64,000 bases of DNA from Podarcis liolepis (lineage: Eukaryota): NCBI GenBank assembly GCA_965112155.1, contig OZ218106.1; one strand, written 5' to 3'. Positions 39 to 49,785 of the stretch are shown one piece after another (position 1 is the stretch's first letter; every line of letters begins with the position of its first letter). The position numbers and the translations under genes were made by a program. The notes under the pieces were generated by a model. The model was not told where the DNA came from. It was given only the letters and a program-made list of their open reading frames with translations, and ran no database searches.

Positions 39-276
39 TATTGTCTATGTCGACTGGTAGTAGTAGCTCACTAGGGCTTCAGGTGGGGAATCTTTCCCAA
101 CCCTACCTGGAGATGCCAGGGTTTGAACCTGAAACCTTCTGAATGCAAAGTAGATGCTCTACCAGTGAGCTGCAGCAACTTTCCCTCCAGTGACGCCACT
201 CCCCACCTTGCTTTCCGTACATGGAACAAGCAGGAATTGCACCCCAAAATAAGTAAGCAATGGCAATTAAGCATAC

Positions 277-493
277 CTGACATCCGTCAAGATATCTTTT
301 TTAACCACTTTTCGAAAGCCGTAGTGGCCAGTCTTCAAATGCACTCTGTAGCTGATGTGATGAAAGGTCATTGTGCTTCCTTCAGCAAACTCGGATCCTA
401 GAAAATTGATTTTCTTCTTCCGTAGGTAACCTGCATCTTCGTCATCACATATGCTTACATGCTTTTCAATTTGTCTGATTCTTGATGAAAATG
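277..493 (-). CDS. ABCG2-like paralog, exon 2 equivalent (gene continues beyond the left edge)
   Basis: Encodes ...AEGSTMTFHHISYRVHLKTGHYGFRKVVKKDILTDV, homologous to [33 protein letters not shown] at 29892-30073. Phase-2 donor AG|GTATGC at the homologous position; acceptor tcaccag| at 494. Confidence 0.85.
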
Positions 494-896
494 CTGGTGA
501 TGGCAATAAACAAATGAGTGATCAGAAAAGTCACTGTAGGTTTGTAACAAACGAGGAACCAGTAGCAACAGGTAGCAGAAGTATATCGTGAGCCCAATTC
601 TAATCTAACACCACCAGCAATAAAAATTTTACGAAGGCAATTTAAAGGAAACAAAATGAGGGCAGGGCATCCAAGTTTTCTAAATTAATTTTCTGTTACA
701 CTCTCTATTTGCGTGAGCTGTGGGGATTTCCAAGGGCACCGGTTATCAGGGTTTGGCTTCCTCTGATAGAGAGGGCTTATGGTGTTTCTGTAATATTTGT
801 TTAACTTAAGAAACACTGCCCCATCAGATCCCTAGAGAGGTGTTCCATCATCTTATGCCTTTCAGCCTTCTGGTAGCTGTCTGCCTCTCTATCTTG

Positions 897-1056
897 GCCT
901 ATGTTCACACCATACATTTAAAGCACCTGACTTTCCCCAAATAACTGCAGTTTGTTAAGCATGCTGGGAACTGTAGCTATGTGAGATGGTAAACTACAGC
1001 TCCCATAATTATTTGGGGGCAGTCATGTGCTTTAAATGTATGGTGTATATGCAGCC
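897..1056. mobile_element. Palindromic MITE, possibly PIF/Harbinger type
   Basis: Inverted ends caccatacatttaaagcac / gtgctttaaatgtatggtg; related copy near 56684-56850. Confidence 0.6.
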
Positions 1057-2410
1057 TCTGTCTCAAAAATGAAGTTGTCTCTTACAAACAACTTAAGATC
1101 CAGCTGTGCTTGGGGAGTGGGTGGGAGTGTGTCAATGTCCCTGAGCTCTCTTGGATTTCTCCATTCAGAATATTCTAGGGAATCTTCCAGTTATTTATGA
1201 GTGTCCAGCTGATGCACAACTGTACACACAAACATCATGCCGAACCAGAAGTGAATTTAATAATTGCAAAAACGGCTCTAGAAGAGCCCAGAAATGGGGG
1301 AAAGGAGTGAAAACAGCGCCTATCTATCCCAGGAGCCTTGTAAGAGGAATCCTAGGAGCCCTTGCGCTGACCATTGAGGCCTGTGGAGTTTGAGAAGGTT
1401 TGTAGGGAACAATTGTGGTGGAGTTTGGCATTGGGTAAGCACTGCTGGCTTTTTAAAGGGTTTACAGAGGTTTCAAGGGTGTGTTTGCAGGTTTTTCCAT
1501 GGTGCTTCAAATATACACAATTTCACTGGCGCGTACAGTGCCTCGAAACATAACCCCTGTGTAAATTAGTTTTGTATTTGGGAAAATATAGTTCTTCCTA
1601 CAGGCACAGAATTCATTGCTATTATCATTGCTCTGTGGACTATGGCTGCATGGATATCATGAGCACCTGCTGAATCCTGTCAGCAATTTCTGCCCTCTGT
1701 ACAATCCTTTAATTTTATTCTTTTAAATTCTTTAGGGAGCTATGTACTTCCCACTTCACAACGCCCACACAGGAATGCACATTTACCCAGATCTTTAAAA
1801 TGATGGCTAAAGGAAATAACTAGGTTGCCCATTTATCCCACAGCAAAGCTGGCACCAGTGTGCAAAACACCCATTTCCATTTTGCAACTGTGTTCCCCTC
1901 ATGCATTTAACAGAGAGAGAATGACAGGGATTTGGAGTAACAAATGCAACTTAAATTGTTTGTGTTTTGTTAGCCAATTTATGTACTCTGGAATAGAAAC
2001 ATTTTGACAAAATAAACAACCCGAGCCAGTTGTAGCTATTAAAAATACAAAATAAGAACCGAAAAAGACCTGTGCAACCAGTCACCACAGAGCACCTCCT
2101 AAAGGCACACCCTTGACAGCATCACCCTAAGTGCACAATTATTTGGGGCGTAGTTATGAGAAAATACATACATATATAATTGTCTCTCCCTCTGAGGTGA
2201 GCATGTGTTTTTAGGAAATATCTTACATGCAAATGATCTTATTGCACACTGCCACTATAGTTTTAATGCATCGGCAGTTTATAAATAGTCTTAGTTTTAG
2301 TTTTTAAAGCTACAACGAGCAGAGAAGGGTCATGGTTAGAATTTATGCCCCCCCTCCCTTATTTTTTTTCTTCAAACACCAGAGCCCTTCTTCTGCCCAC
2401 CCACCCCAAG

Positions 2411-2617
2411 CAGTGACGGAGCTTCATGCTCCAGCACCGGGGGGGGGGGGGGGGAGGCGGAGAGCGGGGGGGGGCTGGCCGGCCGCAGGGGCGTGGCGCG
2501 CATCTTGGGGGCGTGGTGCCCAGCGCAGGGGGGGGGCAACTGCGATGGCACCCTGCTGGGATCACGCTGTCAGGGGTGGTGCGCTCCCCCCCCCGCACTC
2601 CTCTTCCTCCGCCAGTG
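2411..2617. mobile_element. G-rich non-autonomous hAT element
   Basis: Imperfect TIRs cagtgacggag / ctccgccagtg; perfect 8-bp TSD accccaag (2403-2410, 2618-2625). Confidence 0.8.
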
Positions 2618-3479
2618 ACCCCAAGTTCTGGATTCAGGGTGCATGTAGCATCCCCAAACCAAAACATCTGAATGTTTTATTCAGTGCTTTTTTCCCTTTA
2701 AAAATGTTTAGGGATACTCTCATTTTGCTACTCACATTGAAATACTGCCCCTCAATGAGGCCAAGCAAAACATTCACAAAATGTTTAGGGGTATGCCCCA
2801 TCATTATGTTTTTTATGTGCTGGAAAGCCACCCAGAGTGACTGGGGCAACACAGTGAGATGGGCAAGGTATTATACCCATCACCATCATCAGGCCTAGAG
2901 GCATTTCAGAGCCACTGAACCTGCCTTGCCCCACCCTCCAGTCTCTGCTTCTCAATTTGTATTGTATTCTTTTATGCACTGTGGCTTGCTGTTGTTTTAT
3001 CGATTGTAGTTTAGAAACTATTGTACTTCTTAAGTGGATTTCTGTTAATTTTTATATGCTGATATTTAATATTATTCTATATTATTTGATGCAGGTTGCG
3101 TATTTTAACGTTATGTTTTATTGTCACGTTTTTGTATTGCATTAGATTGTTATAAGGTATACATTCTTTGTTTCTTCAGCTTGTAAACCGCCTAGGGTAT
3201 TGTAAGATAGAAAGACGGTATACAAATTAAAAGTGGTGGTGGTGATGATGATGATGAACGAGATTTGGAAATTCAACCCATTTTGAAGAGCGCCCTTTTT
3301 TCCTGAGGGATTCCACCCAACCCCAACCCCACCCCTCATGAAGATTCACTCCCCACCCCTCAAAACCACGGGATTACTAGAGGGCAGCCTCCCCTCAACT
3401 CACACACTTCCCCTCTTTTTCAAAACCTTTTCCAGCCACACCCTCCGTCCCTTTTGTTTTGTTTTGTTACCCATTCATG

Positions 3480-3750
3480 AAGGCGCCGGGGCGGGCGAAG
3501 TGCCGCGCATGCGCTAGCAGCAGTCCCTCCACTCCGACGGGCCGAAGGGGGCCCAGGTGAGCGCCTCGGCAGGTGAAGGCGGGAGAAAGAGAGAGCGCGC
3601 GCGCTGAGGTCCCGCTCCGGCTTCTTCTTCTCCCTTCCCCATCTCACCGCAAGCCAGGAAATAACGGCTCCGCCGGGGACGTTCCATCGCGGCCCATTCG
3701 CCCTCCCTCCACCGCGCGGCGGGGGTGGCGTGTGTGGCCCGAGCGTGGGA
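3480..3750. promoter_or_regulatory. CpG-island promoter, probably of the ABCG2-like paralog
   Basis: Dense CpG; NRF1-type palindrome GCGCATGCGC near 3505-3514; GC box ggggcgggcg near 3488; consensus splice donors on both strands. Confidence 0.7.
3648..3687 (-). CDS. Candidate first coding exon of the ABCG2-like paralog (MERPRRSRYFLAC, phase 1)
   Basis: gccgcgATGG Kozak context; 40 nt to donor GCG|GTGAGA; splices in frame (G|CA = Ala) onto exon 277-493. Confidence 0.6.
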
Positions 3751-4321
3751 GGAGGCAAAATGGGGGGGGGGACAAAAATAGACGTCATGGTCGGGGGGAT
3801 TAAGCTAGGATTTATGTTGGGGGGGGGGCAAGCTTCATGTTGTGGGTTGGGTGGGCAGAATCTCAATTAAGTTTTTTTTTAATTGATTGGGAGGCAGCCC
3901 CTCCCCCTTGGCTACACCAATGGGAGGGGGGGGCTCCTGTTTCTGGGTTACATGGGCTGCCCCCGCCCCCATGGGACAAGGTGAGGCGACAGGATCCCCA
4001 GGGTCAGCAGGATCTTTTTACAGTGGTACGTCAGGTTGCAGTTCATGAACCCAAGTCATCACCATTTGCTTTTCTAGACGGTTTAAATATGTCAATGACC
4101 CCTCTGGCTGTACAAATGAATATTCTTTCTTATGTGTCCATCTCTGAAAGAGCAAATCCAAGCGCTGGAAACACAGACCATTGTCCACGTAAGCTGTGGG
4201 AAGGAGCACTCACTGGCCGTTTGCAACAACGGGAGAGTTTTCTCGTGGGGAGCTGGAGCTTTTGGACAGCCGGGCACTGGAGAATTAAAAGAGCGTCTGA
4301 TTCCAAAGTAAGCAGCAAAAA

Positions 4322-7374: not shown

Positions 7375-7522
7375 TTAAGAGAACTTTTTCATGAAACGCA
7401 GCTTCATGTATGAAATCGTAAGGAAAGTTACGGTCATGCAAGCAAGTGCAACATGGTTCTGCCACAGGCCCCATGCAGTTGGTTCGATCCCTTGGCTTTT
7501 GAGATACTGTTCTCCAGTGCAC
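7375..7522 (-). CDS. ABCG2: ABCG2 last coding exon (exon 16)
   Basis: [48 protein letters not shown]; acceptor ttgtag|; TAA at 7377-7375. Confidence 0.95.
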
Positions 7523-10081
7523 CTACAAAGAAGTACAAGTAGAGGTTTTGAGAATTATTCCTAGAATTGCAACGTATTATAAGTGTCCCCCTCCCCTCCA
7601 GAAGTAGCCAGTGACTTTGCAGCTTAGCACAGAAAGAGCACATAACCCTTTCCCAATGGTAGTAAAGGGTAAAGGGGGCCCTGGCCATTAGGTCCAGTCA
7701 TGACAGACTCTGGGGTTGCGGCGCTCATCTCATTTTATTGGCTGAGGGAGCCGGCATACAGCTTCCAGGTCATGTGGCCAGCATGACTAAGCCGCTTCTG
7801 GCGAACCAGAGCAGCGCATGGAAATGCCGTTTACCTTCCTGCCGGAGCGGTACCTATTTATCTACTTGCACTTTGACGTGCTTTCGAACTGCTAGGTTGG
7901 CAGGAGCAGGGACTGAGCAACGGGAGCTCACCCCATCGCGGGGATTCGAACCGCCAACCTTCTGATCGGCAAATCCTAGGCTCTGTGGTTTAACCCACAG
8001 CACCACCTAGAAAGTCCCAGTTTCAGTCCTGGGCATCTACTGTAGTGGAGCAGGAAAAGATTCCCTATCGTAAACTGAAGAGCCACTGCCATCAGTGTGG
8101 ACAGCACTGAGCTAGATGGACCACTGCTCTGATTCATTATAAAACAAGGATAGCTAAGCTTTTTGGCCTAAGGGTGCATCTATCCTTAGCCAATACTCTG
8201 GGGACCACATGGCAACAGCAGGTTGGGCTAAGAATGAAGGTAGACACCACACAGAACACAACCTCCATCCTCACTTGGTCAGCTGAAGAGGGGGGATAGT
8301 GACCCCTCTGCACTCCATGGATGATCAGTCTGATGACCAAGGAACTTGCCTTCCCATCAGGGTACTGGATTTGGCAGATTTAAAAACTTCTCCACCTAAC
8401 CCCAGTGCTGTATATAATTTTAACTTCTTTTTTTTGACATTACTGCAAAATTAGTAGGATCTTTTGGGGGAAGGGATCTGCTTGGGCAGTGGTGGTGAGA
8501 CTACATCAGCCCCACCCACCCCCAGCTATAAATCAACTTCCTATGTTCCATCGGGCCATCCAGCATGACCAAGATTAAATTCAGCACAGAAAAGCGTACA
8601 GACTATGCATGGATTTTCCATATGCCTCCGAGTGGGCAGTAAGCATGATCCTAGTTTCATGGTTATGAATTAACTTGCAATTAAGACAGCTGTTTTTTGT
8701 GTGTACTTAATGAAATAAGATATATACAGTATAGTGAAATGTCCCTCTGATTTGGCTCAGGGGTTTCCAGAATTCCTCATTTAAAGGGATTACGCTAAAA
8801 CCATTCATAGTGTCACTGCTATCATAAATAGTATAGTGTCAAAACAATAACATAGCAATTTCTTTCTAATGCCTTTCTTCCCCTGGGAGGCATCCAAAAC
8901 AATGACCATTTTTGGAGGGGACAGGGAAGTAAATTAAACCCGAGGCTCACCTAGGTCCATTCACATTGCATTAAACTATGGTTCAGTATGTCTGAATGCA
9001 GTCATCATATTAATGTGAACAGTACTCTTGTGGGGGTTTGTAGGTGCCTCCTGCTAAGTGGGTTAGATCTAGCTAGAATGAAAATATATTTCACTTACAT
9101 CTGTAATTTGCTGAGATCTGTACAGTTAGAATTGCTCCAATTTTCATTCATGCTTACGTTGCAGAAATTGAGATCAGCAAGTTCATTAACCTGCAGTGCC
9201 TTTGAAAGTAAAAAGAAAAAATGATATAAAGGCATAGTAACAGCAAGAGAGTTGTTGCAGCGTAGTTTCATGTAAAAATGTTGTAGTGTGCAGACTATTC
9301 TTTTCTAGCTAGTATAGGATAGAAAATGAGCTGTGAGTTTGTTTTGCTGATTTAGTCCTCACTTCCACTATGACATTTGTTGGGTGATATCAGACAAGCC
9401 ATTATCATTCAACATTCCCTCTTCCATTTGCAATATGGGAGTAATATTGTTGTAAGGAACACAAAGGTTGTATGTGAAATGCTCTGAGCATTTGGGGAGA
9501 GTGTCATATATATTTGCACGTTCATTATTATTTACAACCACATAATGGGGGTAAGGTGAAATTGGTGAAATTTGAAATTGGTGGCTCCCAGACTGTAGAC
9601 TTTTTTGTGGTGGTGAGTATAAAGGAAGCTATTCTTCAGCCCAGATTACTACAGCTGGAACAGCTCAATCGGTAGATCACGGGGCTCTTAATTTCAGGGT
9701 TGTGGGTTCAAGCCCCACATTGGGCAAAAGAATATTTTGCATTGCAGAGGGTTGGAGTAGATGACCCTTGCGGTCCCTTTCAACTCTCTAGATTCTATGA
9801 TTCTAAGTGACTTAGTATGCAAATGTTCCAGCAATCCATGAAGTGCTTCAGCCCAGGTCGACTTTAGGGGCAGCTGTTAACCGAGGCATTGCAGACGGCA
9901 TCAGGATTACGTTGAAAGTGATATGTCCTTTTGCTTTCAGTGGATCTTACAACACAATTCTATGCATGTTTATTCAGGAGTATGACCTACATTCAGTGGG
10001 TAGACTCTCTAGCAAGTATGTTTATGGCTGTAACCTTAGTCACAACTCACTTTAGCTGGATTGAGGGCAAAGCCTGTAAAA

Positions 10082-10121
<40 letters not shown>

Positions 10122-13100
10122 ATGCCTGTAATTATGGGGCAGAATTTCCAAGCGCTTGAGCTGACTAGTTTGTCTTTCACCAAGGCTCCATTATAGGTAG
10201 AATAGTTACTTTTGGGGAGGAAATGATTTTTGCATGAAGCACTTACTGTCATCCCATATCGAGGTATACTGAAGTATTGGAGCCAGGCAAGCCAAGGCAG
10301 TATACTGGTGAGATTTACCAACAACCCAGAGAAAATCTGCAGACAAAACCATAATTAAAAATTTAATCCGATGACGCTTTGTAGTCAACAATCTGGATTT
10401 GCATAATAAAGAATTAATGAGCCATTTTGTTACAAGGAGTGAGATGCAAGATACCCAGACAATGGAAAGACCTTGTACAATTGGTACAAAGCTGTTTGGG
10501 AATCAGCCCTTCTTGAAAGATTTAACAAATAAACTGCGGTTGACACACGGACAGATCAAGAAAGATGGCTTTACTCCAGTGTGGTTTCATTTCATAACAT
10601 ATGCCAGTACATTGGTACCTCGGTTTACGAACTTAATCCGTTCTGGAAGTCCGTTCTTAAACTGAAACCGTTCTTAAACAGAGGCGCGCTTTCCCTAATG
10701 AGGCCTCGGATTCTGTTCTTGGACCGAGGTAGAGTTTGCAAACCGGGACACTACTTCCTGTTTTGCAGAGTTTGTAACCAAATCGTTCGTAAACAGGACT
10801 GTTCTTAAATCGAGGTACCACTGTATTCCAGAAAACGAACCATCCCACCCATCCCAGCGAACCATCCCCGAACCATCCTAGCATTTGGCTCAATCTGATT
10901 GATCTAAATTTAAACATAAAGTATTAGCTTCACTTTGAAACCCCCTCTCACGTCCATCAATTTACCAACACTTTCTATTGTTTCATAGGTAACGTAAGAG
11001 TTAAAATGACCATTACTCATACTTAATCTAAGCACAACCACAAGGGCTCCTGATTAGGCGTTTAGTTATGTGATGTTGGATGTTATCTGTTAACTCTGTT
11101 TTATCCTGTTTCCCTGCTGTCTTTGTTTAAACCAATTCAGGAACCAAGAACTTACACACTGACCACTAATAATGAACCCTATGTTGTAGATCGTACTGCA
11201 AATTTATTATGCTAATTTTGTGATAGACAAATGACATGAGAAAACTTGGTCTGTTTATTTGTACTGTTTACTATTCCTGTGGTCCTTGTTTATAAAACTC
11301 AATAAAAAGCAATTCCGGCAATAAAGTTTTAGTTATTAAAAAAAAGGGGGCACCCACCTGATTCAGTTTCCTAGCTGCTGCAATGCCAGCAACTTCCTAT
11401 CAACCATTTAAGGATACTCACAATCATAAAAACAAAGGTGATGGTCATGAGTAGATTTGCTACAGCCACGACACTCTGTCCTGCGGCAATTGCTAGCGCC
11501 ATAGAAGTCGCTGTGTAAGATACCATCATCAGAGTAAACATCATGATAAAGAAGGCCTCTGGTGTTGCCTTTAGACCTTAGAGATCAAAAAGAAAATGCG
11601 TGTTTTTTGATGAAGAATATACAGTCAAATATTGTTACTAGTTTATTATGCATCATAGACTTTACATACACTTTATTTTCATGATGTTGCTTATTTAATA
11701 ATGTCTGCATGGGTGAAATGCTTTCTACTCCTTGTGCAGCTTTACAACAAATAATATGAGGTTGCTCATATTATTTTAGTTTTAGGTGGAAAGCTGAAAG
11801 AGCGTGACTTGCCAATGGCCCATTCAGACATTACCTGGCCTTTGGAACAGGCCTGGGCAATATATCGCCCTGGACCGATATAAGGGGCAGACAGCGACGA
11901 CAGCTTCACTCAGCAGTATATTCCGGATGAAACCGCTGCCTCCAGAATCCCTCTGCAACCAGCGCCTAGTGCACTGAGGGTGCAACAAGCTGCCAATGGG
12001 CACTGGAAGCAGAGTGGCCGCAGTTTGGGTGCCAGAGAGTGCTATTTTTCTTGAAAAAGAGGTGCCGGAACTCACCATTAACTCCTCCCTTGTTCTCTTA
12101 TAATGGCAATAGCGCCCACCTAAGAAGTGCAAGTTTTGGCAAGTTCCAGCTGAAAAAAAGCCCTGGTGACGGAGGGATGGAATATCCTAATGCGTAGGGT
12201 TGATGGGCTGGAAAGCGGAACAGGAGCATTTGCACATGAGAACATTTTGTTGCAGGATCCACCTGGCAAGCTCTGTTGCATAGCTTCAAGGACAACATAC
12301 TTACCTAACATGAAATAAACAATGCTGGTGAAGATAATGCTTGGTAAAGTCCTCATGGGTATTAAATCAGCCATTAGCTTTGAGAAGAAATATGCAGAAA
12401 TTCGGTAGTATCCACTGATGTACTCATGTCTATGAATATAAACAGTACAATATTACCAGGTAAAGTTTTAAAGTACTGAAATAATTTAACACAGTAAACA
12501 ACCGAGATACATTGTATGCAGTTTGACAAAACTTTGATGTTGCCATAATAAAATCATCCCCCCCAAAACTCTACATCCGTTCAGTCTTATTTATCAGTCT
12601 TTTAAGAAAATGTTATGCTAGGGATTAAATCGTTTTTTAAAAAAAAATTACCATAAAAATATACATTGGGGTCATGCAGACCAGAGATGTAAAACAGTTA
12701 GTTCCTCTTCTCAGGGGAGGCTGGAAATTGTAGTTTGTAGTTACACTGTAAGACTGTCTCCTTCTCTTTAGAACTTCTTGGGTGTTAAGATCAGCATAGG
12801 GTAGAACTCTTGGTAGTTCACTACCCTCAGAATTTATTTATTTTTTTGGGGGGGAGCAGCCTGGAAGAGGGTGGACCCTATGCTGTAATAATAATTTTAT
12901 TATTTGTACCCCACCCACCAGACAGGGTTGCCCCAGCCACTCTGCGACTTCCAACGGGTATAAAAACATAGTAAGACATCAAACATTAAAAAACCCTCCC
13001 TATACTGTAAAATTACCTCTCCACAGAGGTGTGTCCGGGACCTTTATTATGTAGTTTTGTCTCCTGGCCTTATATATTAGGACCCACTCTATTCCTGTGA

Positions 13101-16100
13101 CTCTTAATATGTTTTGAACTTGTTTTAATATTGCGTTTTTAAATTGCAACCTGCCCTGGGACCTTATGGTGAAGGGCGGGTAAGAAAGATGATTCTTGAA
13201 ATAAATAAATAAAATAAGCAAATAAATAAGGCAAATAATAATAATAATATACAGTGTTGCCTGTTCAGCAGTGTTCTACTTACATGAATATCTTCTTCTC
13301 CACAACAAAAAGCTCAATAGCGGAAATGCTGCTGAAACACTGGTTGGTGGTCATAAAGAACATAGCACCAATTCTATGGGGAGGAAATACGGATTGTCAC
13401 CATAAAGCCTTTGAAAAAATATTTGATATTCACAACAAGGATCCTCTTTCCTCCCCGAAACCCACTTTTTTAGCAAGCTCATCCTTGGACGATCCCATGT
13501 TCTCATCTTCACCACTGCCTCACCCACTGGGAAAAGAGCTATAAGGTCCATTTCTGGTAGAAAACAGGCATTTACAGTGTATGCCCTTGAGCAGCTGCCA
13601 ATTTATGTTAAAGATACTAGCCCCTTGGGAGGTGAGTGGAGGCAGAATGGGAGGGGACAGTACCCAGGCCCAGACAGAGGGGAGGGGCCATATGGGCCAC
13701 TTGGCCCGGGCCTCCGATTCCAAAGGGGGCCTTGGAATATTCACAATTCAGCATATTCACAATTGCAGGGGATGCACTGGGACAAACACGGAGGTGCAGC
13801 AGCGGTGGGCGGATTCCCTGGGGCCATGGCTGGCATAGAATCATAGAGTTGGAAGAGACCACAAGGGCCATCGAGTCCAACCCCCTGCCAAGCAGGAAAC
13901 ACCATCAGAGCACTCCTGACATATGGTTGTCAAGCCTCTGCTTAAAGACCTCCAAAGTAGGAGACTCCACCACACTCCTTGGCAGCAAATTCCACTGTCG
14001 AACAGCTCTTACTGTCAGGAAGTTCTTCCTAATGTTTAGGTGGAATCTTCTTTCTTGTAGTTTGGATCCATTGCTCCGTGTCCGCTTCTCTGGAGCAGCA
14101 GAAAACAACCTTTCTCCCTCCTCTATGTGACATCCTTTTATATATTTGAACATGGCTATCATATCACCCCTTAACCTCCTCTTCTCCAGGCTAAACATGC
14201 CCAGCTCCCTTAGCCGTTCCTCATAAGGCATCGTTTCCAGGCCTTTGACTATTTTGGTTGCCCTCCTCTGGACACGTTCCAGTTTGTCAGTGTCCTTCTT
14301 GAACTGTGGTGCCCAGAACTGGACACAGTACTCCAGGTGAGGTCTGACAAGAGCAGTATACAGTGGCACTATTACTTCCCTTGATCTAGATGCTATACTC
14401 CTATTGATGAGGCCCAGAATTGCATTGGCTTTTTTAGCTGCCGTGTCACACTGTTGGCTCATGTCAAGTTTGTGGTCAACCAAGACTCCTAGATCCTTTT
14501 CACATGTACTGCTCTCAAGCCAGGTGTCACCCATCTTGTATTTGTGCCTCTCATTTTTTTTGCCCAAGTGCAATACTTTACATTTCTCCCTGTTAAAATT
14601 CATCTTGTTTGTTTTGGCCCAGTTCTCTAATCTGTCAAGGTCGTTTTGAAGTGTGATCCTGTCCTCTGGGGTGTTAGCCACCCCTCCCAGTTTGGTGTCA
14701 TCTGCAAATTTGATCAGGATGCCCTTGAGTCCATCATCCAAGTCGTTGATAAAGATGTTGAATAAGACCGGGCCCAAGAGAAAAGCTTCCCTGTCCTGCG
14801 ATCGGCTCCACAGAGGAGTACGGAACGGGCCCCGGTTGGGTGGAGGCTACCAAGGCTCCAAGCAGCCAGCGTGATGGTGGACCATGTTTTTCATGCTATT
14901 AAAAGTTGGTGGGGTTTTTTTTAAAAAAAAAATCTTGTTTGCCAAACATTAAAACCACACGTACCTTAAAGATAAGTGTGTTGGCTTTCTTATCGCTAAA
15001 AGTTCTTTTGAAAATTATGAAAAATTGATGAAGATGTGGCCATTTGTTTAAAATTTTGTTGACTAGGCCTGGAATCCTTTCCCCAATGTATTTTTAAAAA
15101 GCACTACAGTGGTACCTCGGGTTAAATTCTTAATTCTTTCCGGAGGTCCGTTCTTAACCTGAAACTGTTCTTAACCTGAGGTACCACTTTGGCTAATGGG
15201 GCCTCCTGCTGCCGCGCCGCCGGAGCACGATTTCTGTTCTCATCCTGAAGCAAAGTTCTTAACCTGAGGTACTATTTCAGGGTTAGCAGAGTCTGTAACC
15301 TGAAGCGTATGTAACCCGAGGTAGCACTGTCTTGTATATCTATATTTTCCATTTTGTCTTTATATGCAGATACAGCTCAAGCCTTGAAATAACATTATTT
15401 GTCAGCATAACTTTTGTGAAAATTATTTATATACTTATTTATAAGACTTCAGTTATCCCCAGGGTAAAAAAGGGGGGGGCACATTATCTACCTGGCCCAG
15501 GCCTCTGCCTGGCTCTGCAAGGCGCTGCCAGTACCCTACAAATTGTGGGGGAAGGAGCTGTCATCGCCTGGTTTTACAAGATGGAACGCTAAGATACTGG
15601 CTGGTTAGCAGTTCTATCCAGTTAAAGAATAAAAGAGATGTATAAAGTCCAAGCAGAAGCTAGTATTTGTTTTACAGGCTGTGTTTTTCAATTGACAGGA
15701 GCTAAATTTCAAGCTTCAAAATGGGAGGCATCAATGCTTCTGAATGCTTCCAATTGCAGGAAACCACAGGAAGGGAGAATGGACTCTTGGGCTCAGATTC
15801 TGCTTGCTGGTTTCCCACAGGCGACTGTGGTGCTGGTATGAGATGGGCCATGGGCCTGATCCAGCCTGATCTTCTTATCTTCTTAAGAAGTCTGAAGATT
15901 TCTCTAGAATCAAAAACTGCCACCATTTTCTCATCACACAGCCACCGGATTCCTCACCTGTTCTGCAAACCAGTGGTATCATTCGTTACCCGAAAGAATA
16001 TGGCACCTACGACTGCCGCCAGGAAAACGGTAACACAGAGCTGAAACATAAACGAAATATACAGCAGTGTTATATCGCATACAGTCGAGTGCAAAAATCA

Positions 16101-19100
16101 CTAGCTGTCAACTACAAAATTGAAGACAAATACAAATCAAATTCCTTCTGAAAATTGGACTTGTCATTAGCAACGAAACACCCTCCAGCAGCTAAAAACC
16201 ACCGCAAGCTCCATATTAAGTTATCATGGTTTCATATAGAACTTTGGAATTTAGCAGGTTAAACCTGCTGCAGCCTGAGAAACGGCATACCAGACACGTG
16301 CCTTTTTCTTTAAGGAGGCATTTGAAATCAGCTCAAGCTGTTTATATTTTGCAATTGACTTTTATTTTTCGGATTATGGCTGTTTTACTGAGGTCTCATC
16401 TGCTGCTATGTATTTTGTGGGTGCACGATTGTTTTGGTGGTGTTTTTTTTTGGTATTCTTTTTTTTACAGTGCAATAGAATTCTATTCATATCTACTCGG
16501 AAGTAAGTTCCTGGAATACAAAGGGGCTTCCTCCCAAGCCTGGGACATAGAATTGCAGCCCCAGCGTGTTTTTATTATTTGGTTTCTTAGCATGATCTAC
16601 ATTTGAAATAAAATAATATTGATATCATTAATAAAATAATATTAATGATAAAATAAGTATCACAACTGGCAGTGGCCTGTGATGATGTATGCAGCAAACT
16701 TTGAAGAAGGGTGTTGATTCAAGGCAGCCCAAATAGGTTCAGAATAGGGTTTCCCAACTTGAGTCTCCAGCCTTTTTTTGGACTACAATTCCCTTCATCC
16801 TTGACCACTGGCCCTGCTAGCTAGGGATGATGGGAGTTGTAGTCCAAGTTTGGGAAACCCTGGTTGAGAAGGGTTTTTTATTATTAAAGTGGTACCTCTG
16901 ATTACGAACTTAATTCGTTCTGGAGGTCTGTTCTTAACCTAAAACCATTCTTAACCTGAGGTACCACTTTAGCTAATGGGACCTCCCGCTGCCGCCACAC
17001 TGCTACTGCGTGATTTCTGTTCTCATCCTGAGATAAAGTTCTTAACCCGAGGTACTATTTCCGGGCTAGCAGAGTCTATAACCCGAAGTGTTTGCAACCC
17101 AAGGTGTTTGTAATAAGGATACCAGATTTTTTTCAATGAATCCGGGGAAACTTTTCAACTTCAGTAGGAATGAGAGGATTTTATCAGGGGACTGATTTAT
17201 AAATCCGAGAACTGTCCCCGGGAAACGGGGACGTCTGGTAACCTTAGTTTGTAACACAAGGTACTCCTGTATTATAAAGTGTGATATATGGTAAACATTT
17301 TTTCTCTTTTTAGCTGATGAAGTATCTACTGGTATACTAATGTACTTGGAGCACACAAGGCTATACCAGGGGCGGAAGTGACAGCTGAAGGAAAGGATTA
17401 GTGTTTGAATGACCGAATGACTCCATGAAGGCTTCTCTAACCTGCCACCCTAATGTTGTTGGACTACAACTCCCATCATTCCTGGCCATTGGTCATGCTG
17501 GCTGGGGCTGATGGGAGGTTGGAGGTGCACCAGATTGACGAAGGATGCTTTCGACCATCGTGGGTAGGGCACCGTTTGGACTCAGAATGTATTGGGCTGG
17601 TACTGCCAGAATGGTTAAGACCGCATATCAAGCATTAAGTATGAATGATTAAAACCGCGGCCAATGTGATGGTATCAGGCAGTTTGGCAAGAGCAGCCCT
17701 CAAACGTAACAGAGGGCCCTCCATACATGGTACCGTGATGTTAAGAACCTGCCGAAAGGACCAAATGTCAGGGATAATCCAAGCACTAAGCCAATTGTAG
17801 TAGAAAACAAGGATCATAGCAAGGCCCAATTGAGAAGATTAAAAAAGAACTGTAGGGCATTTGGAGACCGCATTTCAAATCCATTCCTAATGAGGTTAGG
17901 GAGATCAAAACGATTGGAGGGGCTGGGGAGTCAGGACCGTTAACCCTGGAAGATTAAAAAGCTCTAAAAGGGCATTATTCTTGTCACAAGGTCAAGCTTT
18001 TACAAAGCAATTAAGAGAGATCTCCATAATATCAACATACACATGGAATCAAAGGCCGTAATTCTAGGATTCTGAGGAGATTTTTGGCTTGTGGACAGCA
18101 AAAGTTTAAGAAGGAATCAAATGGATCTAATTAGATGTTTTATAGAGCCCCAACCTCTAAGGGCCAAAGAGGTTTGCTGAACATCTGAAGCGCAAAGGTG
18201 GGAGAAACGTAAGCCTTCTCGTGGCCTTCCTCCTGCGCTCCCCTCCCCAAGATAATCTTCCTCCTTCAGGACACCCAGATGCATATTTGTTGGGGCTCAG
18301 AATAAACGCAGCTAGGGAAAATAAAGGCTTAAAGCTGATTTGGGATAAGCAACATTCCCTTGTTCACCACTTCAAATCTGACGCTCTTTTGACCAGATGT
18401 GGGGAACCTTTTTATTTTCTCCTTTTTTATGCATACCTTTATATAAACAATGAAGGGGAATGGCAGCAAAGCATGTCAATTCATCGTACCAGTTTAAAAG
18501 GTCGGGACTATGTGGTTAAAACCAAGTGGGGAACTTTTTTTTTCAGCCTGAGGGACGCTTTCTCTTTAAAGTACTCTTCCAGGGAGGAGTGATGGGCAAG
18601 AGCTACAGTCAGCTGAGTCAACTGCAGGTGCAGAAATCACATGCTCTTTGCTTCCAGCCCCATCTTAGCCTGGCCAGGCACAGCTGTGAACATTACCTCA
18701 GGCGTTCTCCACCTAGGTTCAGCTGTAACTCTCCCCGGCATTCCCTCAGACGTTCCCCACCTGTGTTTAGCTGTCATTCTCCCCAAGCTGCTATGTGCAC
18801 GCAGCCGAACAATGCCCTTCTTCCCTCCTTGCCTGCCTACGGGCTGAGGTGACAGTAATGGTGGAGAGGAGGGCATTTGGGCTCCTTTTTTGCTTCGATC
18901 AATTCTTCCACCGGTCCCATATTCATTCCACCAAGTCCCTGCTGCTGCTCTCTGCAAGGTCCCCCCAACCTCCGGCAATCTTCATCCTCCCTGTCACTTT
19001 CCCACTGAACAAGCCTCTTCCAGGTGATCCTCGCCCTCGGAGCCAGTCTCCTCTTCCCCTAAGGCAGCCTTTCTCAACCTGTGGGTCCCTAGATGTTGTT

Positions 19101-22100
19101 GGACTACAACGCCCATCATCCCTGAGCTCTGGCCTTGCTAGCTAGGGGTGATGGGAGTTGTAGTTCAACAACATCTGGGGACCCACAGGTTGAGAACCAC
19201 TGCCCTAAGGCTTCCTCGTATCCCCTGCTTTTGCCAACGCCCTCTTTCCCTGCCCTCTGTGTAGGCGCCAATCATGGGACACAGTATGTATTTTTGGCCC
19301 AATACGCAGGTCTCTTCAGTGAAATGGGTGTTGCTTCCCAATATGGAGCTGGAGACCAGGATAGCTACTACAGTGGTACCTCAGGTTACATACGCTTCAG
19401 GTTACAGACTCCGCTAACCCAGAAATAGTGCTTCAGGTTAAGAACTTTGCTTCAAGATGAGAACAGAAATCGTGCTCCGGCAGCACGGCAGCAGTGGGAG
19501 GCCCCATTAGCTAAAGTGGTGCTTCAGGTTAAGAACAGTTTCAGGTTAAGAACGGACCTCCGGAACGAATTAAGTACTTAACCTGAGGTACCAGTGTATT
19601 TAGTAATTAATTAATTAATTATTATTATTCTAAAGTCTATGAACAGAAAACCTTGTGGCAAGGTGGAAGGAGACAGAAAACAAGAAACTTAAGAGAGAGA
19701 GACTTCTGGTTATTCAAAAGAACACAGACAAAGGTAAAACAAGATAGGGCCTTCTCTGTGTTTGCCCCCCAGACTTCGGCATGCTCTTCCCCCAGAGGTA
19801 TGGATGACACCTACACAGGGCTTTTTTCCGCCGGAACTCAATTCTGGCACCACTCAGGTAGGCCCCATTGCCATTATAAGAGAACAAGTGAGGCGTTCGT
19901 GGTGAGTTCTGCCGCCTCTTTTTCTAGAAAAATAGCACTGCGCCTACACTACTGTTGTTTCAGCGGCAACTCAAAACATACCCGTTCCCCTAGGAATTTT
20001 AGTGGCTTGTGTGAATGTCATGGAACCTCTTGTTTCTGCTGCTGGTTTTTACTGGTTTAGATGCTGGTTATTTTAACCGCTTCATTTTATTGGTTCTGTT
20101 TTTTAATTCCATTGCAATATTTAATGGAAAGAGAAGGAAACAAATCTCATAAATAAAGAAATGGTTTAGGTGAGCATCTTCCAATATAGTCATGCAAACT
20201 ACCATCTCCAAAACAAAATGTGGGTGGTCATCATGGCTCCGGGTGAAATATTCCAGCATCTATGGAAAAACACTGGTGCATTCTGGTATCCATTTGTTAT
20301 TTCTGCCATTCTCTACACCTGGAAGCCCCCAACAGCTTAAGGTTATTTCTTGTGCAATCAACATGTGCACAGCAGTAACTCACTAGCTGCACAGGTCAAT
20401 GCAAGTATTGTATCACTGGGGCGTAGATTAATGAAGAAAGCATTTTAAATGACTAGTATTACCTGTGCTATGGAGGCTTGAGGGTTGCCTAGCAGATTTT
20501 TGAACGTGCGTTTAGAGACCCACTTGAGCTGGTGAAAGAAGGGAGTGGAGTAGGTGATTTCTCGGAAAGAGGTCTCCCTCTGGCTCCCCAAAGACAGCCT
20601 CTCTAATTCTGCTTTGGTTTCTTGGTAGTAAGTGGAACTGGAATACTTTTCTGCCAATTTCTCTGCCAGTGTCTGATCACGACTGATGTGTTCGTCAATG
20701 TTATCTTTGGAGAGATGGAGAAATACATTTAACATGGTCTTCTGGATCTATGGGAGTTGAGCTAGAGCACAAAACACAAAATGTAGCATAACATAAAGGC
20801 TGAGTACTGTATATGACGCAGGTAGCGCTGTGGTCTAAACCACAAAGCCTAGGGCTTGCCGATCAGAAGGTTGGCGGTTCGAATCCCCGCAACAGGGTGA
20901 GCTCCCGGTCCCTGCTCCTGCCAACCTAGCAGTTCGAAAGTACAAGTAGATAAATAGGTACCGCTCTGGCGGGAAGGTAAACGGTGTTTCCATGCGCTGC
21001 TCTGGTTCACCAGAAGCCACTTAGTCATGCTGGCCACATGACCCGAAAGCTGTACGCCGGCTCCCTCGGCCAATAAAGCGAGATGAGCGCCACAACCCCA
21101 GAGTCGTTCGTGACTGGACCTAATGGTCAGGGGTCCCTTTACCTTTACCTTTACTTTATATGACATAAGCTTTTGTGGACTAGAGTTCATACCATCCAAA
21201 GAGGTGCTTTGCTCTTCGCTTTCAGTTTGGTCCACTGTTTGAATGAAACGGACACAGGAAGAGCCTCAATTGCCCACCTAGTCCAACATCCTGTTCTCAG
21301 CAGATACCCATGGGAAACCCACAAGTAGGACTCAAGCACAAGAGCACGCTTCCCTCCTGCGGTTTCCAGCAACTGGCATTCAGAAGCATTACTGTGGAAG
21401 CAGAGCATGGCCATCATGCCTAGTAGCTGTTGATAAGTAGATCTTCCATGAATTTGTCTGCTAATGCAGCCTAAGACTGGAATAACTTCTTCTTTTTGCA
21501 GCCATCTTGCATTGGTGGCCCATGGTCATTTTGTGGTCAACTAAGACACCGAGATACTTTTCACATGTACTTGATCTCTCAGGTGACATTCCAAAGTTGG
21601 GACATGGTGACAGAGAAGAAGATCCTGTCCCATGTTCAGCCTGACCCCAAAACTGTGGTGGCCAAACTCGGCCCTCCAGATGTTTTGGGACTACAACTCC
21701 CATCATCCCTAGCTAACAGAACCAGTGATCAGGGATGATGGGAATTGTAGTCCGAGGGCTGAGTTTGGCCACCACTGCCCTAAAGGAATGACCAGAGTTG
21801 TATGATAGGAGCCAGTCCTCCAGGTATCCTGGTCCTAAGCCATTCAATTGCAATCCCAACCCTCTTTGTGCCAGGATGAGGTGGTTCTGGATTGAGTGGA
21901 GGCCTTTGGTGTCCTCCAACCACAAAGTAACACCAGAGTCACTCTACAAGGGCAGTTTCCCCTTTCCAAGCATGTGAGTGGGCAGAAGAACTATTAGCAG
22001 GTCCACATCACCAGCAGCAGCATACAGAAAGCACCAAAATGAGGCAGGGACCAGCTAAGCAGGCCCAGGATGTGCTAGCTCCCTAGCCAACCCAACTGCC

Positions 22101-25100
22101 ATCATTTGACAGCATCAGGTCCAATTCCTGCACCAACTCCAGGCTCGCACAGAGATTTATGCCTACTTATGCCCCTGCTAGCATGAGTGACAGGGGTCTG
22201 GATGCAGTGGTAGCTCGGCAAAACTTCACTGCTGCCTGGGCAGGGTTTGAGCTTCCTTGTCAGGCTGGTTTGAAACCAGCTCTTTGTTGCTCTGATCTAT
22301 AAATAATAACAGTTATTTATAGAATCATGGAACTGCAGAGCTGGAAGCGACCATGAGGGTCTAGTCCAACCCCCTGCTATGCAGGAATCTTTCGCCCAGT
22401 GTGGGGCTCTAACCCACGACCCTGAGATTAAGGGTCTTATGCTCTGTCGGATTGTAGGTGCTGAGACTTCACCGTGTGTCAGTACCAGTGGGAGGTAGGC
22501 GGTACGTTGAATGCACACGGATGCACAGCTGAATGCCGTAATCTGCACAACAGATGGGTATGATCTCTGAATAGATTGTTGTGCTGGCACCGGCACTATA
22601 CAAACCAGTGGTCTCTGTATGGTATCGTACAGGAGCGATTTCTCTATGGCAAAGCTAATCAACGCAGAATGACTCTAACAAAGAAACTGTGTTTTGCACA
22701 CCTATTTCAATTTCACCCGTCTTGTTTGAAGCCACAGCCGTCGAGTCTCCATTAATGACATCCAGAAAGAAGTCAGCAGGGTTGTTGTACGGTTCGCACT
22801 CATAACCTACAAAGAAATAAAAGGCTTGCAGGTCTTTCAATAAGCAGGTGGTGAAAATGTATTGCAAAGTACTTGGGGTCGTGTATTCAAAATCTTCAGA
22901 TTTGTTCCCAGCCCCCAAATTGTCTCCAGATTATCAAACAGCCTGCAGCCGTCCATGCTTTGGTAACTTCAAGACTAGGCCATTGTAATAAATACATCCA
23001 CCCGCTCCCCTGTAGCAAAGCCAAATTGAGCTGACTTTAACAAAACAACAACGGGGAGATATGCTCACATATAGCAGTCCCCACTATGTTCAGTAGAGAG
23101 TCTTCTGAAACCTTACCACTGGATTTGAAAAATTCTATGGCATTCTGAGCTGGTCCATGATAAAGCATCCTTCCTGCTGCCAGTAAGGTCAATTTATCAA
23201 ACAGTCGGAATATGGAGTAGCGAGGTTGGTGGATGGAAAAGATGATTGTTTTCCCTTGCCTGGCCATCCTGAACAGAGAAGGCAGTAAGAAAGGTGTCAA
23301 CCAGCTTAAGGTTTTGTAAAACATGGTGTTACTCATTCAAAATGTGCAAGCTAAAAAACCCCCTGCAATTTATCATAGGTCAAAATTCTCAACATACAGC
23401 TGTGCAAAGTGAAGAGACCACCTCTCTCTGTGCTGCCCCACCGCTTCTCTTCTCCATAGCCCAGTAGCTATGACTACTTGTATAATGGGCACTGAATTGA
23501 TGTTCTAGCTACCTGAGAAGCTGGTTTCACTCCCCGATTTGGCCCAGCAGATAGCTTCTGCCTTTTTTCCAGCTCTGCTCAGTGTTCAAAACTCCCATTG
23601 TTCTAGGCACATTTTGTGACAGGGAATTTCATGAGCACGAGCGGTTTCTGAGCTCTGGGTGCACTACTGCGCCTAAGATTTCAGATTAAAACTGCAGAGT
23701 GGAAGGAAAAGAGGACATTTTCCTGCCTCCCCACTTCCAGCTGCTCTCTGAAGGCTAAGAGACCCCTCTTAAGAATATTAGGGGAGTGGGCAGGGGAAGG
23801 ACTAGACCAGTGTTTCCCAAACTTTTTTGGGCAACGGCACACCTGTTTACTGAAAAAAAATCTCGCGGCACACCACCATTAAAGCCCCGCCCCGTGACGT
23901 CAGCGCGCAGCGTCACGCCGGGAGGGACGCACGAAAGTGAAAGTTTTTCCCCTCCCCCCTCAGTCCCTCGCTCGGAATTCAGCTCGTTTGGGGCATCGCT
24001 CCGGCTGCTCCCTCTCCCGCCGCGCAGGAGCGATGCCTCTCTCTGGCTCTTCCTCCGCGCAGGCTGAGGGAGGGAGGGAGGGGCGCGTGTGACCCGTCTC
24101 TGCTGGGAGACCAAACCCAGCGAGGCAGAGTCGCGCGGAGGCGCCCAGGCAGCGCTGCCGGCTGCGAGGAGGAGCGCCAGGCAGCAGCAGGAGGCGCGGC
24201 CTCTCCTCGCCGCCGCCGCCCCGCCTCTCGCCGACCGACTCGCCCGCCTCCCTCCAGGTATCTCGCGGCACACCAGCCGATGTCTCACGGCACACTCGTG
24301 TGCCGCGGAACACCGGTTGGGAAACACTGGACTAGACCATGTGAAAAATGGACATAATATTTTAGCTGCAGTTCATTCATTTTCAGCTTTGTATTCTTGT
24401 TATTAAAAAAGCATGCCTAGACATTCCGTTGTTGCGCCCATAACCTAGGTTTAAGGTGCCATTTTGCTCCTATCTCAGTTTCTAACACTGGATCTGCTGT
24501 ATGGCAAGCTAAACCTGGGAGTAGGCTGTCAGAAACGGCTTGGGAGTGGGGTTAGGGTTTTTAATATTGTTAGGTTGCTAATACTTCTTGAAGTGTGCCT
24601 GCTTCTGCACTTCCATAATACCTGCTCAACTGCATACCTGTGAAGGAAGAGATTATGAATGCATTGCACACCTCCAGGAAAATGAGACTTGTTAAAGGCT
24701 GGCTACAATTCCCCAATGTCTGGTGAGCCGCAGAAAAAAAAGGGACCTAGTCCATTCTTTCAGCAGCTACACAGTTTGCATTTATTATCACCGTACTTTC
24801 CCCTTTTGTCTTGTTATGAGGCTGGGAGTATTGTAAGTCCCATCAAAGAACTATTCAAAGAAAAAAATCAAGTGCTGTTACTGCACTTCAAGATTGATTC
24901 TCTGAAAAACACTAAACCTATTTAACCTCGTTTATTTACTGTACGGTATATGACTTTCCCCCAAAGTACCTCTGGAAAGCACAGATGGGTTCCCCTAGCT
25001 CAACAAAAACCTGTGAGTTGGGGCAGGCTCACAGGGAGTGACTGACCCAAATTCACCATGTAAGTCTAACCAGTTTGGGTCTCGATTATCTAGGGAGAAT

Positions 25101-28037
25101 GCCTCCTTCCATACAAAACTTCCCGGCACTTAAGATCTTCCGATGATGCCCTGCTCAGGATTCCATCTCACGGGGAAGCTAGGTTTGGCCCTCGTTTTTG
25201 CAATTGTGCCTTCCAAGAGAAGTTCTTGTCACTTTTCTGCAGAAAACTATTTGTCCCATCTGGCCTTTTAAAGCTGAAGTTGACTACCTCATCCTCTGTT
25301 TTCTGGCTGTTTTGCTATATTGTTTTTACTTTTTAGACTGGTTTTAGAGAAGTCTTGGTTTACTGTTGTGCTTTAATATTTTGGACTACTGTATTTTAAT
25401 ATTTTGTTGGAGGCCGCTCAGAGTGGCTGGGGAAACTCAGCCAGATGAGCAGGGTATGTATGTATGTATGTATGTATGTATGTATGTATGTATGTATGTA
25501 TAAATAAATAAATAAATAAATATTACATTTGGAAATCCCTGCAATACATTGTATGAACAGTGGCACATAAATCATTTTAAATAAATTGTGGTGTCTGGTA
25601 TATATTGCAGTGAAATGCAGAATTTAATAGTCAAGTAAGACTGATGGCTGGTTGAAAGACGAAAGCAAGGTTTATTATTTATGGCAAACAAAGCCACATA
25701 TCAGCTCAATCTTACATGTGGCCAACACGGAATCAAGAAGTTAACAATAACTGATTTGGAGAAGCAGGAAAGAAGTAAAGCATGAGAAACAATCTACATA
25801 TCAACAAGCAGTTCGTCAAGAAGGAATCAGGAAGGGAAGAATAGGTTGCCTTTCCGTCTACCTCCCCCCACCCTGGTTCAGGTAACTTATTGCAAGCATT
25901 GTTGTTTCCTAGCATAAATAACATGGCTAAGTAAAACTCTGGACACAGGTGGTCTCTCCATCCCAATTCCAGCCCTATCAACTAAATCCCCGTGGCTCAC
26001 ACAAGAATCGTACTTTGGGCATCACAGTTCGTTGCACCAGTGCTGAAGAAAGCGCTATTATTTCATCCCATGCACGGCCAAAGACACGCAGTACCTTTTC
26101 TAGCAATTACCTTTTCAGGAGTAGCAGGACAGCATTGGCTGTGCTGGCATCGAGCCCAGTGGTTGGCTCATCTAAGAACAAGATTGCAGGATCAGTAATC
26201 AGCTCCATGCCGATATTGGTTCGTTTCCTCTCTCCCCCCGATATGCCACGAATGAACTGGGTTCCAACCTAATGCAAAACAAGAACTTGAGCGATATTAT
26301 GTATGTCGATTGTGCCATATAAATAAACGTTTAAAATAATAAAGATTAATATTTCATTAGAAGAATTTCATTTATAATGATAGAGAAGGGGGAAAGAAAG
26401 TGAGAACGGAAAAAACCCCTTACATTACCATACATTAATATACAAATATGTATATTCTTATTATCCTAACACACATATAATTGTCAATAACCTAATATCT
26501 TCTGTGTAAACCCATTTCAAATATTGTATTCAAAGACAGTCTGTGTCTATAAGCTATCCATATTTTGCAAACATTGCCATGTTGTCAAGCCATTGATTAA
26601 GAGGAATCGTATCTCTATTCTTCCAATCCATCAGTATCAATCTCTTGCCCACCATTAGGGCATATAGAATCCATTTTCACTGTCCTGTTGTCAATTTCAG
26701 TGCAATGGGTATATTGTTCAAAAGAATATTCACCTCTGAAATTCTTAATTTTTTTCTGTAGTGTCTTGTTTGTATAGTTTTTATCCCGGAATTTAGTAAG
26801 TGTGGGACATAGTTTTGGAGAAGCAATGATGATACCTTTGAATCTGCCACTTTTGTCAAGCCCAGCTCCTTGAGGATCTGGTTGATCCTATCCTCCTTTT
26901 CCTGCTCCCTCACAGTCTTCGGTAATCGGAGGGCAGCTGAGAACTGGAAGTTCTCCCTCACGGTCAAGGTCCCCATGACCACATCATCCTGGACAAATCC
27001 AAAGGAAACAGATAGATACGCAACTCAAATCAGGAACTCCAGTTCACATACCAAAGCCACAAATCACGCGCACAGCTCCAGGCAAACCTTCTCTATTCCA
27101 TGCTCTGCAACATTCGCATAAAGCAAACGGGGACTGTGCATCGCACCGGGCAATCCTGGTTTTAACACTGGATTTTGTAAAGGGTAAAATAAATAGAGTC
27201 AGAGAAAATGGGTGGCTTACCTGCACAACATATCCAGAGATACATTTGAAATTGGCAGGTTGAGGGGCTCCATTGATTAGAACGTCTCCACTCAAGCCAT
27301 GGGGATCTTTCCTTGCGGCTAAAATATCCAGTAGTCTAGAAGAAAAAGGCAGAACTACATCACACAGGACTCCCCCCACCCACCCACACAATGTGTGTTT
27401 TTGTTGTTGTTGTTGTTAAAGCACACTGGGAGTCAAACTGGATTTGATCGTGCACAGTTTTAATGGAAATAACTCATCCCAACCCTTTCCAAAAGCAACT
27501 ATGTGGACAAGAGGAAAGCTTCTCTCCAGTGCAAAAGTGTAGCTGGGGAGGATTTTCATCAGGCCCAAGGTATGGAGGGGAAGGAGTTAAATCCTCCCCC
27601 ACCCCCCATGGTTCTGATCTGATTGCGCTTTTCCCTGGTGTGGCTGCCATTTAAGAGTTTTATTTTAAAAAGCACAGATCACCAAATTCATAGAACCATA
27701 GAATTGTAGACTTAGAAGAGACCACGAGGGTCATCTAATTCAGCCCCCTGCAACGCAGGAATCTTTCACCCAACGTGAGGCTTGAACCCACGAACTTGAG
27801 ATTAAGAGCCGATGGTGTTGGCTCCTGAAACCTATCATTCTAGTTGCCAAGAAAAAAAACTAATTTCTATTCATTTAACCAAAATATCTTTTGAATTCCC
27901 AAGCCATGTTACAACTTTTTAGCACCACTCATTTGGGGAAATTGAAAGCTGAAAATTTCAACACACCCTATTAACCGATGGGATGATCTCTCCTCCCTCC
28001 AGTGCTGTTCTGGGCAGCCTCCCAGTCCTCCATAAGA

Positions 28038-28077
<40 letters not shown>

Positions 28078-30073: not shown

Positions 30074-30169
30074 CTTTCCGGAGGTGCTTTATCCCTGTGA
30101 ACCACAAGATGAACACAGACAATATAAGCAACAAAATTCAGGTGGCTCCAAGGTGCCCCTCATTAACAG

Positions 30170-37162: not shown

Positions 37163-37514
37163 GGGACGCGGGTGGTGCTGTGGGTTAAACCACAGAGCCT
37201 AGGACTTGCCGATCAGAAGGTTGGCAGTTCGAATCCCTGCGACGGGGTGAGCTCCTGTTGCTTGGTCCCTGCTCCTGCCAACCTAGCAGTTTGAAAGCCC
37301 GTCAAAGTGCAAGTAGATAAATAGGTACTGCTCTGGCGGGAAGGTAAACGGCGTTTGTGTGTGCTGCTCTGGTTCGCCAGAAGCGTCTTAGTCATGCTGG
37401 CCACATGACCCAGAACCTGTACGCCGGCTCCCTCGGCCAATAAAGCGAGATGAGCGCCGCAACCCCAGAGTCGTCTGTGACTGGACATAATGGTCAGGGG
37501 TCCCTTTACCTTTA
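37163..37514 (+). mobile_element. Sauria SINE, full length
   Basis: gggacgcgggtgg head, (accttt)n tail, 14-bp TSD cctatgcctggaaa. Confidence 0.93.
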
Positions 37515-49653: not shown

Positions 49654-49785
49654 TCAGGCCCATCTCCCGCTCGAGGCGAAGCTCCGGCTGAATGAGAAGT
49701 TGACCTCAGAGTTCTTGTATTTGCCCCAGGCTCCAAACGGCACGACGATGGCAGTGCTGTTATCTTCCGTTCCATACTGTATAGC
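49654..49785 (-). CDS. PPM1K: PPM1K last coding exon
   Basis: [43 protein letters not shown]; acceptor ctccctcag|. Confidence 0.96.

Follow-up and report, generated by a model that had tools for sequence, protein, structure and literature searches.

A reptile tandem paralogue of ABCG2, probably with altered cargo, begins beside ABCG2 in Podarcis liolepis

The window analysed here, the whole stretch of 64,000 nucleotides from contig OZ218106.1 of the lizard Podarcis liolepis (assembly GCA_965112155.1), carries the beginning of a second ABCG2-type gene, hereafter ABCG2-B or copy B, directly behind the canonical ABCG2, hereafter copy A. The reading we favour, with a probability of roughly 0.62, is that the window contains the first two coding exons and the CpG island of a reptile-wide tandem ABCG2 paralogue, which probably encodes an active exporter whose cargo range has changed, probably becoming narrower and less aromatic. 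The window holds only the first 85 codons of ABCG2-B, the exons from 3 onward lying to the left, outside it, where PKD2 is the expected next neighbour; statements on the membrane domain therefore rest on orthologues. The gene is already annotated in databases as 'ABCG2-like', and its tandem adjacency to ABCG2 in a turtle is in print, so what is new is the orthology group and the pocket change and not the existence of the gene.

ABCG2-B is encoded on the minus strand. Its exon 2 (277..493, 217 nt) is delimited by a CAG acceptor and a phase-2 GTATGC donor and encodes the N-terminal tail together with the first strands of the nucleotide-binding domain (NBD). Two alternative starts precede it: the first coding exon 1a (3648..3687, minus strand, 40 nt), with an ATG at 3687 and a phase-1 GTGAGA donor, opens a 677-residue isoform, and the first exon end 1b (3471..3474, minus strand), composed of an ATG and a G followed by a GTAACA donor, opens a 665-residue isoform. 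Spliced to exon 2, exon 1a yields 85 stop-free codons, 80 of which agree with the Podarcis raffonei protein P0003, whose first 13 residues map to 3687-3649 by tblastn, and exon 1b yields 73 stop-free codons with 69/73 residues identical to protein P0010. Each start exon fits one annotated Podarcis isoform, a third annotated isoform begins at a methionine within exon 2, and exon 2 carries no insertion or deletion in related sequencing runs, among the rows listed. Both start exons sit inside an unstranded CpG island (3450..3780; GC content 0.66, observed/expected CpG ratio (o/e) 0.94, 34 CpG), which is thus partly coding and is likely to be the promoter region of ABCG2-B. A GC-rich segment at 2400-2620 was considered as a further part of the promoter and rejected for its o/e of 0.52 and its very high, repeat-like depth.

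A first-pass annotation of this DNA had pointed to a second copy of the first ABCG2 coding exon on the same strand, with the same phase-2 donor, about 7 kilobases (kb) beyond the ABCG2 stop and with its own CpG island. All of this was borne out: the exon at 493-277 ends at GTATGC in the phase of ABCG2, the island is the one described above, and the measured distance from the ABCG2 stop is 6.9 kb to exon 2 and 3.7 kb to the upstream ATG. The two exon peptides quoted in that annotation were located by a six-frame motif search on the minus strand, at 368 for ABCG2-B and at 29983 for ABCG2. The last 100 nt of the first NBD exons of copies A and B are 67% identical, and the resemblance of exon 2 to ABCG2 is not due to chance, since its 70-residue peptide matches human ABCG2 at E 1.8e-5 in a PDB search and lacertid proteins at E values down to 4e-35.

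Two side observations concern the same region. In the second intron of ABCG2-B, a tRNA-like match at 108-179 (minus strand) scored 32.4 bits, just over the Rfam threshold, and is probably the head of a tRNA-derived short interspersed nuclear element. In sequencing run X1, guessed to be of RNA, one contig matches 441-277, ends at the donor and continues with 35 unlike letters, another spans 3692-3557 unspliced across the donor of exon 1a, and the unique intron bins are without X1 cover; we regard this pattern as a weak hint and do not use it as proof of expression. Among the runs recorded as RNA, none contains the stretch.

A search with the exon 2 peptide returned three proteins among nine candidates, namely the full-length 'ABCG2-like' proteins of Podarcis muralis, P. 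raffonei and Zootoca (93, 93 and 87% identity), and their clusters add P. lilfordi, so that intact models of ABCG2-B exist in three Podarcis species and in Zootoca. The corresponding RefSeq/UniProt models (XP_053260077.1, XP_028599418.2, XP_034967933.1) are B orthologues with 87-93% identity over the exon. Automatic names mix the two copies: B is plainly named ABCG2 in Alligator, Pogona and Anolis, and several 'ABCG2-like' models fuse A and B.

The evolutionary position of copy B was resolved on proteins collected with a Podarcis and a crocodile query (best 120 matches each), which together with P0002-P0004 amounted to 166 distinct proteins; four fused models longer than 760 residues were removed and 162 non-fused proteins analysed. 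A single clade, B (FastTree support 1.0), comprises 42 of the 162, all from squamates, turtles or crocodilians, and the matches listed place in it none of the 75 bird-named proteins (our own count, one name being incomplete), no tuatara protein and no amphibian protein. In an IQ-TREE analysis of 33 chosen rows, B was recovered with support of 100/100 and A with 81/88, the amphibians remaining outside; B nests among tetrapod ABCG2 proteins with amphibians as outgroup, and the ABCG2 of birds falls with copy A rather than with B. A tree of the ABCG2 family, proposed in the first-pass annotation, thus returns B as a separate orthologue group. The same annotation had suggested that the second gene arose by local duplication long ago and kept its frame open, and this agrees with the full-length orthologues in squamates, turtles and crocodilians, which form their own clade and stand in tandem behind ABCG2.

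Since clades A and B each follow the reptile species tree in the 33-row analysis, the duplication is placed by these phylogenies before squamates parted from turtles and archosaurs about 280 million years ago. A recent, lacertid-specific duplication is ruled out by the turtles and crocodilians in clade B. The duplication may even predate mammals: the single usable mammalian row, a long-branched bat fragment, joins A at 86/81, and a tree placing it outside A and B is not rejected by the approximately unbiased test (p-AU 0.25). With the crocodile query, turtle B proteins show 75-80% identity (72% for one poor model) and birds 67-72%, like other A copies. These searches make loss of ABCG2-B in birds likely but unproven, because a strongly diverged bird copy could rank below the best 120 matches. 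Copy B evolved faster than A in squamates (Podarcis-crocodile identity 70% for B vs 84% for A) and hardly faster between turtles and crocodiles (83% vs 85%).

Further observations on these trees concern single lineages or regions. The extracellular loop 3 is well conserved in clade B, which may keep ancestral features there, since the end of the loop is nearer to the axolotl sequence than that of the lizard A copy is. The worm lizard Rhineura floridana has a third copy (P0178), sister to its own ABCG2-A and with Leu at the position of F432, which by its placement represents a more recent extra duplication. In two mammalian models, P0024 of the squirrel and P0025 of the bat, portions of two ABCG2-like units are fused. 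Phe 439 is retained in the pieces analysed, and these fall outside clade B, a divergent squirrel piece grouping with the bat sequence; this suggests separate mammalian tandem copies.

The gene order PPM1K-ABCG2-B seen in the window, with all three genes on the minus strand, recurs in other reptiles. In Alligator mississippiensis, KYO38052.1 is a fused PPM1K and ABCG2 model and KYO38053.1 is B. The Pangshura model P0196 is A in its first half and B in its second, and models of Chelonia, Ophiophagus and Lerista likewise run from A into B. In several species A and B are placed on contigs of equal size, including a 0.88-megabase contig of Crotalus.

Copy B shares its domain layout with human ABCG2 (BCRP). 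In P0003, ABC_tran (93-232), ABC2_membrane_7 (261-334) and ABC2_membrane (394-604) follow each other as in ABCG half transporters; residues 48-677 align to human ABCG2 at E 7e-272, and the score against ABCG2 is 907 bits vs at most 251 bits against ABCG1, G5 and G8. The phase of the first NBD exon of B equals that of lizard ABCG2. With residues numbered as in the human protein, from an alignment of P0003 to PDB 5nj3, P0003 keeps the catalytic residues, R482, E446, N436 and the L554/L555 valve. Across clade B, K86 is kept in 39 of 40 filled rows (the sole exception being a poor Chelydra model), Q126 in 41/41, E211 and H243 in 42/42, and S187-G188-G189-E190, D210 and D217 in all 42 rows. Judged from these residues, the Walker A, Q-loop, signature, Walker B/D-loop and H-switch elements of the B orthologues are intact. 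Rodent Abcg3, a diverged Abcg2 duplicate near Pkd2, has altered nucleotide-binding motifs, whereas B keeps them. Three positions invariant in the 120 other proteins vary in clade B: Asn or Glu replaces D127, beside the Q-loop, in 14 of the 39 rows filled there, Lys replaces R191 in 9/42, and Val or Ile takes the place of the valve residue L554 in 11/42.

The substrate pocket of copy B differs from that of ABCG2 at several positions. At 439, where all 120 non-B proteins of the 162 have Phe, the filled B rows carry Leu (35) or Met (3), four of the 42 B rows having a gap in this column; the aromatic clamp of the canonical multidrug pump is thus absent from B (0/38). Position 542 is Asn or Ser in 42/42 B rows vs Thr in 120/120 others, positions 443 and 444 are Thr in 38/38 (S443T, A444T), V401I is fixed, and position 440 is Asn in 32 rows and Ser in 6, the latter from turtles, so that S440N characterises squamates and crocodilians. 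Relative to human ABCG2, B therefore has Leu or Met at F439, Asn at T542 and S440, Thr at S443 and A444, and Glu or Met at Q141; it also differs in being an additional gene, placed in tandem beside an ordinary ABCG2, and, in lacertids, in having a coding start exon inside a CpG island. Diagnostic sites were sought in 90 rows (39 B and 50 others, with the squirrel row dropped), in which 373 sites are conserved in A and the outgroups. Twelve of the 373 are replaced throughout B (141, 394, 396, 401, 414, 439, 443, 444, 450, 514, 521 and 542), and these changes affect 11 of 149 membrane-domain sites vs 1 of 204 NBD sites (Fisher p 0.0005). Conserved cavity residues are changed at 3 of 14 sites vs 9 of 359 elsewhere (p 0.008), a comparison made post hoc, after F439 had been noticed.

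Published work gives position 439 a central role. The human F439A mutant fails both to bind and to transport Hoechst 33342 (PMC10439158), the cavity residues include F439, S440, V401 and T542, and the F439 pair is called imperative for all ligands (PMC11957596; PMC12250437). F439Y and F439W retain efflux, a result attributed to Gose et al. 2020 (bioRxiv 2022.05.18.492512), and the residues matching F439 in ABCG1 (F455), ABCG5 (Y432) and ABCG8 (F461) are all aromatic (bioRxiv 2022.05.18.492512).

On these grounds B, with its ATP motor kept and the aromatic side chain at 439 gone, is likely to export a different set of molecules. The downstream exons are presumably intact in P. liolepis, as in its Podarcis relatives, and the protein would dimerise like ABCG2 and couple ATP hydrolysis to export. 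Aliphatic side chains would then take the place of the pair of phenyl rings between which flat polycyclic molecules are held, and B would stack flat polycyclic drugs, porphyrins and flavins poorly. The added Asn and Thr residues on transmembrane helices 2 and 5 would make the cavity more polar, possibly favouring smaller or more polar endogenous cargo.

Several points weigh against this reading. Much of the pocket is unchanged, as T435, N436, F431, F432, E446 and R482 are largely kept (the selector pair T435 in 37/38 and N436 in 36/38 rows, R482 in 42/42). Within the membrane domain alone the cavity enrichment is weak (3/14 vs 8/135, p 0.07), and the B counts reflect few events, because the rows are isoforms and related species. 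A survey of 150 distant ABCG representatives, 144 of which covered the helix bearing position 439, found Phe or Tyr there in only 59 of the 144 aligned, and in 37 of 45 among the shorter, closer representatives (at least 38% identity). F439L did not turn up in the literature searched, and the pump may tolerate Leu or Met at this position although it does not tolerate Ala. Because many distant relatives carry a non-aromatic residue at 439, such a residue is compatible with ABCG-type transport; judged from these alignments, it appears to fit a changed cargo better than a dead pump, an unchanged cargo also being compatible.

It is unlikely that copy B duplicates ABCG2 as another broad-spectrum pump for the same cargo, kept for dosage or for another tissue pattern set by its own promoter, with Leu or Met tolerated in the clamp. 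The retention of most pocket and gate residues (F431, F432, T435, N436, E446, R482, L555), the separate CpG island with its two start exons and the frequency of non-aromatic residues at 439 in distant ABCG relatives would suit such a pump, but F439 is invariant outside B and never restored in the 38 B proteins, the diagnostic changes concentrate in the membrane domain, and human mutants require an aromatic residue at 439 (PMC10439158; bioRxiv 2022.05.18.492512). Copy B might otherwise serve mainly as a heterodimer partner of copy A, forming an asymmetric Phe/Leu pocket through which the pump would be tuned or dampened, on the pattern of ABCG5/ABCG8. ABCG proteins are indeed half transporters, and heterodimers exist in the family (ABCG5/G8, PDB entries). 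The genes of A and B are adjacent, their proteins are 65-75% identical, and in squamate B the NBD has drifted more (70-72% identity between Podarcis and gecko or crocodile) than the membrane domain (80-82%). Heterodimeric transporters, however, often carry one degenerate site, whereas the catalytic set of B is complete, and we consider a mainly heterodimeric role quite improbable.

The first-pass annotation had further supposed that the second gene specialised, for example for urate handling or pigment transport. Specialisation as such gains indirect support from the fixed pocket changes; the substrates named are so far unsupported. A dedicated exporter of urate, or of another purine, in kidney or gut would accord with uric acid being a physiological ABCG2 substrate. 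The more polar cavity (S440N, T542N) would also suit a small polar cargo. Birds are typical uric-acid excreters, and the apparent absence of B from them, among the matches listed, weakens the urate idea; aquatic turtles and crocodilians rely less on urate and yet keep B, so this role seems to us very doubtful. Pigment cells offer a more speculative role, given little credence here: by analogy with the insect white family, a clamp-less B could have been converted, early in the history of amniotes or of reptiles, into a dedicated exporter of a small polar metabolite (such as a purine or pteridine) for iridophores and xanthophores, and lost with those cells in birds, perhaps also in mammals. Skin iridophores and xanthophores are present in non-bird reptiles, and the distribution of B fits such a role; amphibians, however, have these cells too and show no B among the matches listed, and no literature linking ABCG2-B to iridophores or xanthophores was found in the sections available. 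Finally, an orphan exon pair or a pseudogene in P. liolepis is hardly credible. Only two coding exons lie within the window, but they have an open frame, canonical splice sites and 80/85 residues identical to the intact P. raffonei protein; to this are added the intact models of three Podarcis species and Zootoca and the absence of insertions or deletions in exon 2 among the related rows listed.

The retention of B by all major non-bird reptile groups without an aromatic 439 constitutes a natural experiment on the clamp. A comparison of A and B within one lizard would show what the clamp contributes and could reveal a reptile-specific endogenous cargo. The pair is also relevant to annotation and veterinary pharmacology, because databases name A and B interchangeably.

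As for earlier descriptions, Ma et al. 2020 (PMC7362505) report that the painted turtle Chrysemys picta has ABCG2 and an ABCG2-like gene side by side, in the same neighbourhood as ABCG2 of birds; they give a single copy for Xenopus and place bird ABCG2 beside PKD2. The turtle pair is very likely identical with the A/B pair; the sections of that paper available define no reptile-wide clade and name no pocket residues, and its main text does not contain 'reptil', 'lizard' or 'tandem'. Neither a reptile-wide clade nor a pocket change of B was found described in the literature searched, which covered only a minority of subscription papers. The bird chromosome-6 'ABCG2-like' gene is likewise a second sauropsid ABCG2-family gene, under purifying selection (PMC7362505). 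Its identity with B was considered and rejected, the order in the window being PPM1K-ABCG2-B vs BLOC1S2-ABCG2-like-PKD2L1-SCD around the bird gene (same source); the name 'ABCG2-like' that the two share is misleading.

The canonical copy A occupies 7375..30073 on the minus strand. A splice-aware model gives 15 coding exons and 652 residues, intact and with all introns GT-AG, the first coding exon (30073-29892) ending in phase 2 and the stop ending at 7375. The protein is identical at 646-648 of 652 residues to three Podarcis proteins, at 625 to that of Lacerta and at 608 to that of Zootoca. Its upstream neighbour PPM1K (49657..63234, minus strand) was traced in six coding segments by tblastn with the crocodilian PPM1K P0219. 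Copy A has no CpG island around its first coding exon (o/e 0.32 in the region 30000-30600); the nearest weak CpG candidate upstream, at 37000-37600 (GC 0.52, o/e 0.54), possibly marks a non-coding first exon. A CpG-rich stretch in an ABCG2 intron (23750-24450; GC 0.61 and o/e 0.89 measured in 24001-24500) is perhaps a young element, perhaps an internal promoter. ABCG2 intron sequence also contains a 313-codon open frame (13905-14846, minus strand) that matches the reverse transcriptase family RVT_1 at E 3.8e-9 and looks like the 3' part of a CR1-type long interspersed nuclear element (LINE). A 131-codon frame at 38853-39248 (minus strand), without a Pfam match, resembles the 3' end of an RTE/BovB-type LINE.

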